From Octopus sinensis (taxonomy: Eukaryota): a stretch of DNA of 64,000 bases. Positions 1,670 through 58,379 of the stretch are shown one piece after another. The notes under the pieces are model-generated. The model did no database searches, had not been told where the DNA came from, and saw nothing but the letters and a program-made list of their open reading frames with translations. Position 1 is the stretch's first letter. Every line of letters begins with the position of its first letter. The position numbers and the translations under genes are program-made. Where the stretch lies: the NCBI RefSeq assembly GCF_006345805.1, contig NW_021832385.1:1-64000 (forward strand), written 5' to 3'.

Positions 1670-1720
1670 TGAGAACGTACGTTCAAGATTAGTCAAAAAC
1701 AACACTTCATCATCAGCTCA
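1670..1720 (-). ncRNA. Type I hammerhead ribozyme, family A (one A missing from GAAA)
   Basis: Minus strand reads tgag-CTGATGA-stem II-GAA-CGTACG-TT-ctca. Confidence 0.65.
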
Positions 1721-2217
1721 GAAATTCCTTGGTTTGGATTTGGAAACACTGAAAATAAGAACATACCCTTTCGAGATCTGCTCGTAACTAACAGTGTCAA
1801 CAAATTCAAATAAGCAAGCGAAGAATCTCTGTTCTCGCCTTTCCACCAGCGTGGGTTAAAATCATCAAACACTATGCTTATTTCGGTAAAATCCGAAGCA
1901 TTAATCAGAGGAGAGATTAATTATAATTTCAACAATTGAGGGCAAAATTATTAATTATTAATCAATGTAATATTTCACCAGTGTTTCAAGTATGCAAAGG
2001 GACCATTCAAGGCGAATTCAAATTATTACATTATATAAAAGGGCTTAGTAAAATAAATTACTTTGCCGCATACTGAACTCATTAGAAATAGCAGCTAAAA
2101 AACTTTTTTAAAGCTATTTCTAATACTTAAAGAAAATCTCTCTCATATATAGTTTGCTTAATTCACTCACAAAAGTTTGGGGGTAAGGACATCGAAAAAT
2201 CAAATGCTAAGGTTATT

Positions 2218-2270
2218 TGAGAACGTACGTTTCAAGATTAGTCAAAAACAACACTTCTATCATCAGCTCA
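2218..2270 (-). ncRNA. Type I hammerhead ribozyme, family A
   Basis: Minus strand reads tgag-CTGATGA-26 nt-GAAA-CGTACG-TT-ctca. Stem I is tgag/ctca and stem III is the palindrome ACGTACGT. Confidence 0.82.
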
Positions 2271-2762
2271 GAAATTCCTTGGTTTGGATTTGGAAACACT
2301 GAAAATAAGAACATACCCTTTCGAAGATCTGCTCGTAACTAACAGTGTCAACAAATTCAAATAAGCAAGCGAAGAATCTCTGTTCTCCCCTTTCCACCAG
2401 CGTGGGTTAAAATCATCAAACACTATGCTTATTTCGGTAAAATCCGAAGCATTAATCAGAGGGAGATTAATTATAATTTCAACAATTGAGGGCAAAATTA
2501 ATTAATTATTAATCAATTTCACCAAGTGTTCAGTATGCAAAGGGACCATTCAAGGCGAATTCAAATTATTACATTATATAAAAGGGCTTAGTAAAATAAA
2601 TTACTTTGCCGCATACTGAACTCATTAGAAATAGCAGCTAAAAAACTTTTTTAAAGCTATTTCTAATACTTAAAGAAAATCTCTCTCATATATAGTGTTT
2701 GCTTAATTCAACTCACAAAAGTTTGGGGGTAAGGACATCGAAAAATCAAATGCTAAGGTTAT

Positions 2763-2815
2763 TGAGAACGTACGTTTCAAGATTAGTCAAAAACAACACT
2801 TCTATCATCAGCTCA
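2763..2815 (-). ncRNA. Type I hammerhead ribozyme, family A
   Basis: Same motif as 2218-2270. Confidence 0.82.
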
Positions 2816-53920: not shown

Positions 53921-56340
53921 TTTTCTCTAGTTTCAGCCCAGAGCTGCGGCCATGCTGATGCACCGCCGTTTTGTGCTACACAGTTACTTCGAAGAACCTC
54001 GTCTAATATGTGGCACTTGGTGAAGAATGGAGTTTGATATAGCTACTCTCATTTGCACCTCTTGCCGTGAGGTAGGTTCATCTGGGACTCTCGAGAGGAA
54101 GATGTCCAGCTTTAATTTAAAAACTGCTACATCTACTTTGTGCAAGTTCCTCTGACTCTTTGGGAGAATATTAAAAAGCTGTGGGCCCTTGAAACCCAGG
54201 CTGTTGCAGAAGCTGGTCCTGAAGCGTAATGGCATTGCTGGGATCTTTGGTGTAGCTTACAATGCCAAAATTTGGCACAATTCCTTCCAGGATCTTCCAG
54301 ACATATATTACTGCATACCTCTCCCGTCTTCTCTCCAGGGAGTAGAGTCTTAGCAGTTTCAACCTTTTCCAGTAGCTGAGCTGTTGCAAAGATACGATCT
54401 TCTTTGTGAATCTTCTCTGGATTGCTTCAAGGTTCGCTGTTAATTTTACACTGGTGGGTGACCATAGCTGTGAGCAGTAATCCAGGCGGCTGAGGACGAA
54501 TGTCCGCCAGAGAACTATCATGGTTTCCTTATCTCTGGTTCTGAATGTTCTTAGGATCCACCTAGCCAGTCGTCTGCACTTTGTCGCCATCCTGGTAATG
54601 TGCACTTGGAAAGAGGTATCATCACTCATGTCGATACCCAGGTCCCTCACAGACTTAGGCTCTGGGATTGAAATTCCCTGTGGACCGGTGTATCCTGTAA
54701 GTTTAATATTCAGTTTTGGATGCTGGTAGCACAGGGCCTGGAATTTTTCAGCATTAAACTGCATATTATTATCCTCAGCCCATCTGTAGATTGAGTCCAA
54801 CTCCCGCTGCAGGTGTGCAACATCGCTGGGGTTCTGCATTTTCTGCGAGACTTTCGTATCGTCTGCATAGCTGGCCAGAGTGGCTATCCGGGCATTTGAG
54901 GGCATATCTAAGAGGGCCACTATAAAAAGCAGTGGTCCCAAGACAGTGCCCTGTGGAACACCGCTCACTATTTGTGCGTATTTCCATTAACCACTACTGC
55001 CTCACTCCTATCTTTCAGGAAGTCATGTAACCACACTCCAAGTTTTCCATCTATGCTGAGGTCACGCAGTTTGTGGCATATCATACCATGATCCACCTTG
55101 TCAAAAGCTTTTGCAAAATCAAGGTAGATTACGTCCACATTTGATTTGTTGAGTAACTGCCACAACACCCAGTCATAATGTTGTAAGAGCTGGGTCAGGC
55201 AGCTCCTACCTGGTCGAAAACCATGCTGGGTATCACTCAGCAAGAAATTTTCCTCAAGGAATACGATTAGTTTCTTTCTGACTATCCGTCCCATGACTTT
55301 GCTGATGTGTGAAGTCAGAGAGATAGGCCTATAGTTTTTGGCATCTGCTCTACTTACCCCTTAATGTATTGGGCATATTATTCCCTCCTTCAACTTGCTT
55401 GGCAGTTTGCCATTCGCAAGAAAGCTCTGGAAGAGAATCTTGAGGGGTTTTGCCAGGGCATGCTTACACGCTTTGAGGAGGATGGCTGGGAAACCGTCTG
55501 GACCAGCAGCTGAGTTTGTGTCCACTTCATCTATGGCTAGTAGGACATCTTTTTCGCTAATGTCGATACATCCTATTGTAACCGCCTCGCTGGTTGTAGG
55601 TGAAGCGGCAAAGAAGTCCACTGGTTCGTTCACTTGTCTGTGTTCCAACGGGGTGGTAAAGACACTTTTGAACTGGTCATTCAGCATCTCATTGATCTTA
55701 GTTGGACTGTCTGTGAGGGAGCCATCCTTTTGGAGGAGGAGTCCTATCTTGTAGTGCACTGAGACTGTTTCTTTCGCGTAATGAAAGAAGGCCTTTGGGT
55801 TTGATTTAATATTTTTTATAACCCAGGTTTCTTTGTCTGCTTCTCCTTGCAGCCTTTTTTCGATCTCCATCAGTGTTGTTTTTAGGCGGGACATTTCGCT
55901 ACTTTTGGGATGTTGGTTGAGACGATTTGTAACCTTCGTCCGTCGTCTCATGAGGATCTTCCTGTCTCTTGGAATCTTGCTCCTATTTGTTTTGGCCCTG
56001 TGCTCTCGGACATATTTCTGGCATACGGCTTGTACAGAAGACATGAAACATTCTAGTTTCATGTCAATGTCTGGTGTGGAGAGACATTCCGGCCAGTCCT
56101 CTCTGAGGATCTCCTTTTGTATCGATTTCCAATCTGCTTTGTGGAAGTTCAGATTGGAGAGATTTCGGGTGCTTCCTTTAGGCTATATGTCTCTGGTTAC
56201 TTTTGGCCCAAACATAGACAGCTCTATTCTGTTGTGATCCGAAACTGATGTTGGTGTCACTTTCACATCATGAATGATGTCCATATTGTTCGTCAAGCAG
56301 AGATCCAGAATGTTATTCGCCCTAGTTGGCTTGAGTATGA
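53921..56340 (-). mobile_element. 5'-truncated CR1/L2-group LINE (end of APE, RT with YADD, 3' UTR)
   Basis: ORFs 55361, 54968, 54171 and 53984; catggccgcagctctgggctgaaac at the 3' end. Confidence 0.93.
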
Positions 56341-56812
56341 ATAAGTCATTGAAGAGTTCAATTTGAAGACTCCACTAGAGTGGACGAAAGCGATATTATA
56401 TGATATATGATTTATAAAAACATGTAACATAATAATAAATATCTGTAAATATAAAACCATCCTGATTTCTGAGTACCTCATTTCTTCTAATATATAAAAC
56501 CTGTACATCATCTCCAAAATTTCGAATATAAATAAATAAATATATATATATATATATATATATATATATATATATATTATATATATATATATATATATAA
56601 TATATATATATATAATCTATAACTACAAAATTAGAGAATGGAGAAACATACTTAAATCAATAAAACATCACTATCCGATGATACCCAATCAATACTTTAA
56701 TACACCATACATATGAGTAAAGGCATTATACAAAATGAGATATACAGTAATAGAAAAAGATAAAGAGATATAAGGTAAAAAATTTCAAATATAATATGCA
56801 ATTAAATCAAAA

Positions 56813-56919
56813 CTGACAGCTGTTTCGGCAGTGAGGGCAGTCATACCTCATTTAACCTCTAAGCCATAAAGGCAGGTATAAATGAGGCATTAACAAGGAT
56901 GCCCCACGGCCTCTTCAAG
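56813..56919 (-). ncRNA. Hammerhead, H-related family, core with a 1-nt defect
   Basis: Reverse complement of 58272-58379, but tcttcaag replaces tcttcagag. Confidence 0.55.
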
Positions 56920-58271
56920 AATTAAATTAAATTTGTTATAATTGTGAAAAATATTATATAACCATATACATATAAATATAAAATTATAAAAATGTAAAAT
57001 ATAAAAACTTATACATCATAAGCTACACTTATATAATATAATACTCATTGGTACAATAAAGAAGGTAAACAGAACAAAATAACAAAATATATATCAGTGT
57101 ATATATTAATATTAATAAGTACCGATATATTACATATTTGGCTAATAGTTTTTTTAAAAACCTAACACATAGGAGATGAAAAATAATATTAAAACTGTTC
57201 AGTCATAAAATTCTAAAGCTATGAAAGTTAATAAAAATTACTATTAATATTAATAATAATAATAATAATAAAAATAATAATAATAATAATAGATACAGTT
57301 AAGTTTGCACCAAGTCCATCCTTTCAAGATCGAAATAACTATGAGTTTAGAAATGCTGATCACTAGGTAAAGAAAATTTGATCAGCATTTCTAAACTCAT
57401 AGTTATTTCGATCTTGAAAGGATGGACTTGGTGCAACTTAACTGTATCTATTATTATTATTATTATTTTTATTATTATTATTATTATTAATATTAATAGT
57501 AATTTTTATTAACTTTCATAGCTTTAGAATTTTATGAACTGAACCATGGTTTTATTATTTATTTTTCATCTCCCTATGTGTTAGTTTTTTTAAAAAAACT
57601 AACACATAGGGAGATGAAAAATAATTAAAACCATGGTTCAGTTCATAAATTCTAAAGCTATGAAAGTTAATAAAAATTACTATTAATATTAATAATAATA
57701 ATAATAATAAAAATAAAAATAATATAATATAGATACAGTTAAGTTTGCACCAAGTCCATCCTTTCAAGATCGAAATAACTATGAGTTTAGAAATGCTGAT
57801 CACTAGTAAGAAAATTTTGATCAGCATTTCTAAACTCATAGTTATTTCGATCTTGAAAGGATGGACTTGGTGCAAACTTAACTGTATCTATTATTATTAT
57901 TATTATTATTTTTATTATTATTATTATTATTAATATTAATAGTAATTTTTATTAACTTTCATAGCTTTAGAATTTTATGAACTGAACCATGGTTTTAATT
58001 ATTATTTTTCATCTCCCTATGTGTTAGTTTTTTTAAAAAAACTATTAGCCAAATATGTATAATATCGGTACTTATTAATATTAATATATACACTGATATA
58101 TATTTTGTTTTATTTTGTTCTGTTTACCTTCCTTTATTGTACAATGAGTATTATATTATATAAGTGTAGCATTATGATGTATAAGTTTTATATTTTACAT
58201 TTTTATATTTTTTATTTATATGTATATGGTTTATATATATTTTTCACAATTATAACAAATTTAATTTAATT

Positions 58272-58379
58272 CTCTGAAGAGGCCGTGGGGCATCCTTGTT
58301 AATGCCTCATTTATACCTGCCTTTATGGCTTAGAGGTTAAATGAGGTATGACTGCCCTCACTGCCGAAACAGCTGTCAG
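58272..58379 (+). ncRNA. Type I hammerhead ribozyme, H-related family (85-nt stem II, weak stem I)
   Basis: ct CTGAAGA ggc-c-gtggggca...tgccctcac-t-gcc GAAA CAGCTG TC ag. Confidence 0.72.

Follow-up and report, generated by a model that had tools for sequence, protein, structure and literature searches.

A 64,000-nucleotide stretch of Octopus sinensis DNA (contig NW_021832385.1, positions 1 to 64,000 of the forward strand; the whole stretch is called the window here) carries 27 hammerhead ribozyme motifs. The motifs are real and trace, by our own count, to about 12 insertion events. We consider it likely that the window is a nest of these insertions in (TA)n tracts, in which six motif families (D, E, F, G, H and H-related) are ends of Penelope-like elements (PLEs) and three (A, B and C) are retrozyme-type repeats, probably copied in trans by a further PLE, with cleavage predicted to occur through dimers. 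The window makes up nearly all of a 66-kb unplaced contig in a 2.72-Gb genome and is a patchwork of (TA)n tracts, long interspersed nuclear elements (LINEs), a mariner remnant and PLEs. PLE hammerheads, Hydra-clade hammerheads and PLE-derived retrozymes have already been published. Our results mostly extend this known biology to a large animal genome in which Hydra-clade PLE families are numerous, each having a hammerhead of its own, and retrozyme-type repeats are abundant.

Census of the hammerhead motifs

A preliminary description of the window had listed about 27 motifs in about nine families over 1670..58379. A seeded search recovered exactly 27 (A, 5; B, 5; C, 3; D, 3; E, 3; F, 2; G together with the related G2, 2; H, 2; H-related, 2), located on both strands and spanning 1669 to 58383. 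We compared the window with 100 shuffles of each kind using generic hammerhead descriptors. The strict descriptor gave 8 matches and a looser one, constrained only to a stem I of at least 4, gave 20; shuffle means were 0.03-0.07 (maximum 1) and 0.9-1.1 (maximum 4), respectively. A descriptor tuned on the window gave 15 matches against a shuffle mean of 0.01, so that the window lies far above shuffled sequence. When stems were not required, 17 of the 19 matches to the core and palindrome still had at least 3 consecutive stem I pairs. Across ten family representatives, 37 of 40 stem I positions were paired, compared to 18.1 (standard deviation 3.7, maximum 33) in 50,000 permutations, in agreement with the family-specific stem I pairing described earlier.

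The type I core, CUGANGA...GAAA...UH with an open stem I, was intact in 21 of the 27 motifs, and six (1669-, 3354+, 14179+, 26824+, 32984- and 56809-) were damaged. Two B units of the window differed by 12 gap openings, compared to 3 between two chromosomal units. The contig is therefore indel-rich, and part of the damage is probably consensus error. In copies elsewhere in the genome, cores were intact in 78/81 (A), 55/60 (B), 26/28 (D), 27/29 (E) and 20/20 (H-related) cases. The quality of this small, poorly polished, unplaced contig raises the question of whether the motif density and inverted repeats are themselves artefacts of assembly. This is very improbable, since the same head-to-head arrays are present on large chromosomal contigs, the arms of the D-family inverted repeat at the left of the window differ by an internal deletion of ~4 kb, and the six families searched by DNA have copies elsewhere that are 95-100% identical.

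Rfam gave no family at gathering score for the hammerhead motifs and no hammerhead match for single A, B and C units at E up to 10, and no hammerhead model was among the matches listed for the window (best 150 of 222). Matches of the window to Rfam microRNA families coincided with palindromes and (TA)n and were discarded. Candidate cores at 33904 and 34713, without downstream GAAA and helix III, were not counted. A dispersed 250-bp repeat, common in other loci, lies at 33761-34011 and 34570-34800 and has a lone CTGATGA with no downstream hammerhead half.

Structure of the motifs

The preliminary description had assumed a 2-bp stem III. Instead, helix III in nine of the ten representatives was a self-complementary hexamer between GAAA and UH, for which no hairpin was predicted alone; self-duplexes had predicted energies of -5.8 to -12.8 kcal/mol, and pairing with a second copy would give an 8-bp duplex. 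Only family D had a 3-bp stem, with a partly palindromic loop. A dimer-type motif has been described for the pseudo-long terminal repeats (pseudo-LTRs) of PLEs (PMC4209133; PMC6765202), and the motifs of the window have the features of dimer-type hammerheads as known from PLEs, mostly with a palindromic helix III. Self-cleavage is predicted to need two hammerheads pairing through this helix. Lunse et al. are said to have found PLE hammerheads with a short palindromic helix III and to have proposed that they act as dimers.

Further features were shared with the PLE hammerheads of Cervera and de la Pena (2014, PMC4209133), namely type I topology, a palindromic 15.2-16.2 region, a short stem I, the presence of many sequence families per genome, mostly as solo truncated copies, and opposite-strand pairs with a few hundred bases between them. 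The closing pair 10.1-11.1 was G-C in four representatives, A-U in two, G-U in one, U-U in two (A and D) and C-A in one (C). U-U at the base of stem II is also seen in many of the published Hydra-clade motifs (PMC8557442 supplement) and in an axolotl retrozyme (PMC7229834). Stem II regions spanned 12-99 nt, and stem I of the H-related family had only two consecutive pairs. The exact core and helix III of the window C motifs were found in none of 32 C copies elsewhere. In these 32 copies helix III was mostly 3 bp with 1 additional nt: twenty had a 7-nt helix III region with a canonical core, nine had a hexamer together with C at core position U4 (U4C), and three were truncated or not parsed. 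Dimeric hammerhead activity could readily be tested on the set of natural variants, which comprises U4C, a long stem II, and U-U or C-A at 10.1-11.1.

Six families at the ends of Hydra-clade PLEs

Fourteen motifs, those of families D, E, F, G, H and H-related, are assigned from sequence comparison to pseudo-LTRs or truncated ends of Hydra-clade PLEs (Table 1). F and H form direct repeats around open reading frames (ORFs) within the window. Elsewhere in the genome, D was present in 11 of 12 loci picked by homology to the ORF that lies at 4.3-6.3 kb of the window, and at both ends in 6. Of 19 E loci, 7 had an endonuclease remnant upstream of the repeat; in L269 and L292, E bounded the ORF on both sides, as did the H-related repeat in L296. 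In the window, G follows the remnant of a GIY-YIG domain, and G2-like repeats flanked long ORFs in all three family loci (L143-L145). Since D, E, G2 and H-related repeats flank ORFs elsewhere, their ORF-less islands in the window are truncated ends of autonomous families.

Reverse transcriptase (RT) motifs RWK/RWR, DKT and YRDD were present in the long frames, with RWK and DKT in those of D, F, G-type and H, and E and H-related were assigned by 61-93% best identity to Hydra-type fragments. A CxCx5C linker preceded the C-terminal GIY-YIG domain in L128, L135, L136, L143 and L144, and the GIY-YIG core, by inspection, had no cysteine pair within it, i.e. no CCHH motif. PF01541 matched the window frame 39774-40106 (E 3.5e-5), and a relative of F with an endonuclease was found (L286). 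Hydra-type pseudo-LTRs with hammerheads flank ORFs, and the insertions lie in (TA)n. The Hydra clade is described as inserting into (TA)n and carrying hammerheads, and an octopus member, Hydra-1_oBim, is in the supplement of the same paper (Craig et al. 2021, PMC8557442). The sequence marks of the long frames are those of that paper's definition of the Hydra clade.

The window elements resemble those of Craig et al. (PMC8557442) in their proteins (RWK-type and DKT motifs, a CxCx5C linker and a GIY-YIG at the C terminus), in targeting (TA)n, in having a 3' hammerhead, which in some has U-U at the stem II base, and in truncated head-to-head copies with a tail at one end. They differ in that many families are present in one genome, several of which have long microsatellite-like 3' untranslated regions (UTRs) and elements of ~4-6 kb compared to generally <3 kb, stem II regions reach 99 nt and tails 70-170 nt, and helix III is mostly a hexamer palindrome and not 3-4 bp with a short loop. 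In the G-type ORFs of L143 and L144 (916-947 aa), RT and endonuclease are separated by long insertions rich in asparagine. A near-perfect palindrome of ~456 nt lies in the 3' UTR of the H-related PLE (window 57146-58044); it is present in many genome copies and is a likely source of double-stranded RNA.

The window also contains a broken Neptune-type PLE. This family is very abundant (L206-L219), and no canonical hammerhead core was present in the 3' end of the copies examined, which retains a GAAA-CCGG half motif; PMC8557442 calls hammerheads universal in such clades.

Families A, B and C as retrozyme-type tandem arrays

The remaining 13 motifs, those of families A, B and C, lie in tandem repeats that lack ORFs and are classed, on their organisation, as retrozyme-type. 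The preliminary description had taken most ORF-less islands to be separate mobile RNAs. This is upheld for A, B and C (three of nine families, 13 of 27 motifs), but not for D, E, G and H-related, which are truncated PLE 3' ends, or for F and H, which flank ORFs of the window. Its wider proposals, that the hammerheads are of the PLE and retrozyme type and that autonomous and non-autonomous carriers coexist, agree with the family assignments and with the presence of ORF-bearing PLE families beside ORF-less A, B and C.

First-look searches of the genome gave 1900 (A), 1279 (B) and 748 (C) candidates, which are not copy numbers. No PLE protein match was found in 65 partly overlapping 3.3-kb A, B or C loci; PLE matches occurred in 3 of 16 10-kb stretches, none of them abutting the array, and one array (L274) ran to at least 16 pure units and held no trace of coding sequence. 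The units measured 545 (A), 598 (B) and 550 nt (C), GC was 0.33-0.40 and ~60% of bases were paired. Unit-length circles of A, B and C folded better than 40 shuffles (z -4.1, -6.2 and -3.1, respectively). A, B and C thus resemble metazoan retrozymes (Cervera and de la Pena 2020, PMC7229834; Li, Clavereau and Pollet 2026, bioRxiv 10.64898/2026.07.22.740005) as ORF-less tandem repeats with one type I hammerhead per unit, GC <50%, a well-folding unit and coexisting PLEs. The 545-600 bp units exceed the 170-400 nt range given for invertebrate retrozymes (PMC7229834), and fall inside the 51-972 bp range of bioRxiv 10.64898/2026.07.22.740005. They are unlike metazoan retrozymes in carrying PLE-type and not canonical hammerheads, in sharing a structured 3' domain, and in the layout of their arrays, which are head-to-head and have two fixed ends in (TA)n; neither "inverted" nor "microsatellite" occurs as a word in the main text of PMC7229834.

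Arrays of A, B and C elsewhere in the genome were mostly head-to-head, with truncated 5' ends. Each family has two fixed sites, separated by 100-120 nt, at which 68 of 70 distinct outer array ends fell, nearly always in (TA)n, and 17 of the 19 arrays with both ends listed had one short and one long end. A one-sided tail has been described for PLEs (PMC8557442), and the two fixed ends and one-sided tail therefore correspond to a PLE insertion pattern. This geometry constitutes genomic evidence for integration of these retrozymes by the PLE route, for which the published case consists of co-occurrence and pseudo-LTR homology (PMC7229834; bioRxiv 10.64898/2026.07.22.740005). Assembled contigs of public runs show no strand, ends or circles, and because a tandem junction is identical to a circle junction, circles are not readable from them; nothing was drawn from these contigs, which came from four runs taken to be RNA for one A unit and, for one B unit, from three such runs and one of uncertain type.

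The A array of the window differs from other A arrays, which have one short and one long end. It has two short ends and mirrored microsatellite flanks within a D-family inverted repeat (142-2518 and 3109-5481), and may have been co-duplicated with the D-family PLE as read-through RNA. The preliminary description had gone further, regarding most islands as non-autonomous ribozyme RNAs moved by the adjacent PLE proteins. The two short ends and mirrored flanks would fit a single co-mobilisation event of this kind, A, B and C are indeed ORF-less with PLE-type geometry, and Hydra-clade elements target (TA)n and have the same palindromic helix III design. We nevertheless find mobilisation by neighbours unlikely. 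Six of the nine families are ends of autonomous families, no neighbouring pseudo-LTR carries the 3' domain, and the ORFs of the window are broken by frameshifts or lack the endonuclease. The ORF next to the A array is that of a D-family element, and in none of 12 loci did an A unit lie upstream of it, so that A was also rejected as the pseudo-LTR of this ORF.

A shared 3' domain and the presumed mobilising partner

The families of the window had been described as having mostly dissimilar surroundings. This does not hold for A, B and C, which are related via a common 3' domain of ~160 nt, also present in older relatives and in a fourth family, whose 588-bp unit carries another hammerhead variant. 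The domain consists of a hairpin and, after it, a long-range helix of 10 bp, within which lie a second hairpin and the short integration end. When nine sequences were aligned, 92% of cells paired and 7 of 30 pairs had changed on both sides, with a covariation score of 0.242 compared to 0.149 (standard deviation 0.016); as the sequences are related and the structure was derived from the same alignment, support from covariation is moderate. No Rfam family matched the domain, and a resemblance to a twister-like ribozyme was unsupported by Rfam and was set aside.

A covariance model of the domain was run on 70 PLE-selected stretches (44 Hydra-type and 26 Neptune-type), taken from 4,430-19,100 first-look candidates per query. 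Significant matches were found only on A/B/C-type copies, including nested insertions and an old passenger in a D-family 3' UTR, and no matching pseudo-LTR, a further difference from metazoan retrozymes, was found in these stretches. Neptune-type PLEs were rejected as the partner, since the A/B/C domain had no significant match in 14 stretches of 10 kb from the window's Neptune family or in 12 3'-end stretches of other Neptune-type families. The miniature A-like passenger of the window (Table 1) recurs in the D-family copies L128-L131 and L133.

It is possible, though doubtful, that A, B and C are amplified pseudo-LTRs of rare, unsampled autonomous PLE families, in which case every family of the window would be a PLE end-repeat. 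In Xenopus, 24 of 57 retrozyme families are reported as homologous to the termini of 22 annotated elements, 21 of them PLEs (bioRxiv 10.64898/2026.07.22.740005), and our 70 stretches sample thousands of candidates. Arrays of at least 16 pure units argue against this origin, no ORF abuts any examined array, and at least four distinct families with the 3' domain were seen, none with an ORF. An alternative that we put forward tentatively is a retrozyme superfamily comprising A, B, C and at least one more family, with units that would combine interchangeable hammerhead variants with the uncatalogued 3' domain. Straddling the integration end, this domain could act as a cis-acting signal or second catalytic RNA for recognition and priming by a PLE protein on a parasite RNA without sequence kinship to the PLE pseudo-LTR. 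If true, an animal retrozyme would have a defined signal for its mobilisation, and the way in which retrozymes transpose could be tested directly; in any case, the domain offers a specific target for mutation in studies of how PLE proteins select their RNA. Our literature search found no publication on A/B/C-type repeats or the 3' domain, with subscription journals, repeat-library entries and preprint supplements lying beyond its reach.

Proposed route of spread

PLEs have been proposed as the mobiliser of retrozymes (PMC7229834), and animal retrozymes as non-autonomous PLE derivatives are the thesis of bioRxiv 10.64898/2026.07.22.740005. By analogy with published PLE and retrozyme work, a tandem array would be transcribed, neighbouring hammerheads would pair via helix III and cut after N17, and unit-length RNAs would be released and probably circularised. 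A PLE protein with RT and GIY-YIG domains would nick (TA)n and prime cDNA of more than unit length, and the outcome would be tandem arms, truncated at their 5' ends and placed head-to-head, of which one end is short and the other is extended by a tail of 100-120 nt. We suggest that the 3' domain, which encloses the short end, may be the structure recognised by the protein, and that density could rise because each insertion targets, and brings, more (TA)n.

Several findings weigh against trans-copying by a PLE and cleavage through dimers. The A/B/C tails of 100-120 nt are longer than the published 30-40 bp, and the A/B/C-like domain is missing from every pseudo-LTR in what is a small sample of PLE stretches. 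The Hydra-type frames had no match to an RT in Pfam, and their RT identity therefore rests on motifs. For 8 of 9 motifs folded in isolation, the fold was no better than that of shuffles (z -1.7 to +1.1), and C was present at core position U4 in 9 of the 32 C copies, each with a hexamer helix III. PLE hammerheads are reported to cleave weakly even as dimers (PMC4209133), and one of nine Xenopus retrozyme dimers cleaved (bioRxiv 10.64898/2026.07.22.740005).

The weak isolated folds and low published activity, along with the U4C variants, the long inserts in stem II and the non-canonical pairs at 10.1-11.1, could mean that the motifs are relics without catalytic activity, or satellite units that spread through recombination of DNA, and that hammerhead activity is irrelevant. 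We judge this to be distinctly unlikely, since the core, stem I pairing and palindrome are kept over ten otherwise different contexts, the great majority of A and B copies elsewhere have intact cores, though these copies are young, and dispersed insertions with fixed ends point to retrotransposition and not to unequal crossover. The U4C core (CCGAAGA or CCGATGA) recurs in a Neptune-type family (L318-L321) and in a C subfamily (L054, L055, L057, L059, L062, L066 and L067).

Table 1. Hammerhead-bearing insertions, PLEs and 3' domains in the window. All cut sites are predictions.
Feature	Position	Strand	Details
D-family PLE inverted arm	1..1290	-	ORF part joined to 3' UTR sequence, ~4 kb internal deletion; 1-139 matches 9454-9593 at 94%
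Family A array, ORF-less ~546-bp units	1479..4140	.	Head-to-head, junction 3083-3109, in (TA)n; hammerheads, - arm: 1669-1723 (damaged), 2217-2273, 2762-2818; + arm: 3354-3408 (damaged), 3899-3955 (cut after 3950)
D-family PLE, 5'-truncated, frameshifted	4334..10063	+	ORF pieces 4334-6350, TA/TG-rich 3' UTR; 4334-6723 has 96% identity to full-length copy L132
Miniature old head-to-head A-like insertion	6725..6942	.	In D-subfamily 3' UTR; no hammerhead
Two D pseudo-LTR ends, small head-to-head insertion	7225..7716	.	Hammerheads 7240-7289(-), 7576-7626(+; cut after 7620); + arm ~70 nt longer (tail)
D 3' pseudo-LTR	9857-10063	+	Hammerhead 9996-10046
Family B array, ORF-less ~600-bp units	11505..14471	.	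Head-to-head, junction ~12660; hammerheads, - arm: 11806-11911, 12402-12506; + arm: 12996-13101 (cut after 13097), 13589-13693, 14179-14281 (core damaged)
3' domain, example (B)	13181..13334	+	
3' domain, other units	3483-3652(+), 32188-32360(-)		Also in remaining units
F-family PLE	24337..26971	+	Pseudo-LTRs 24337-24830 and 26477-26971; 522-aa RT frame (24964-26532) without endonuclease; hammerheads 24688-24734 (cut after 24728), 26824-26871 (damaged)
Family C array, ORF-less ~550-bp units	31716..33548	-	Hammerheads 31884-31950, 32434-32500 (cut after 32440), 32984-33049 (damaged)
Solo E pseudo-LTR end	35900..36260	-	Hammerhead 36110-36194
5'-truncated PLE with family G hammerhead	39840..40705	+	CxCx5C linker and GIY-YIG remnant, 3' UTR; hammerhead 40585-40674(+; cut after 40668)
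G2 pseudo-LTR end, related Hydra family	40895..41170	-	Hammerhead 40928-41018; 77-84% identity to ORF-flanking repeats in L143-L145
Broken Neptune-type PLE	45790..47650	-	RT, Cx4CxxC linker, C-terminal GIY-YIG
H-family PLE	47769..52751	+	Pseudo-LTRs 47769-48160 and 52360-52751, frameshifted ORF 48541-51232; hammerheads 47833-47964, 52424-52555 (cut after 52549)
E pseudo-LTR ends, head-to-head pair	52835..53298	.	Hammerheads 53047-53132(-), 53149-53234(+; cut after 53228)
H-related 3' ends, head-to-head pair	56615..58740	.	Hydra-clade PLE 3' ends; hammerheads 56809-56925(-, damaged), 58266-58383(+; cut after 58377)

Density and setting

The tuned descriptor matched 15 times in the window, compared to 3 times in 400 kb of chromosomal DNA and 5 times in 190 kb of unplaced DNA. 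A looser descriptor gave 21, 11 and 10 matches, respectively, with no shuffle baseline. Motif density in the window was thus 6-30 times that of control DNA, depending on descriptor and control, a figure that is approximate since the descriptors were tuned on the window. The control stretches held further hammerhead families, indicating that the phenomenon is genome-wide. Nesting of insertions in (TA)n may explain the local density, with no special function of the locus needed.

Further hammerhead repeat families with units of ~480 bp and ~530 bp, absent from the window, were seen in L197/L272, L139, L213 and L267. An AT-rich complex satellite at 14960-16650, with periods of ~64, 87, 183 and 307 bp, carries no hammerhead. 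Related LINE copies, located at 16741-20906, 27543-31711, 41346-45071, 53900-56340 and 61436-64000, encode an ORF2 with APE endonuclease and RT and an ORF1 with a CCCH zinc finger, and a mariner transposase remnant is present at 43119-44188.

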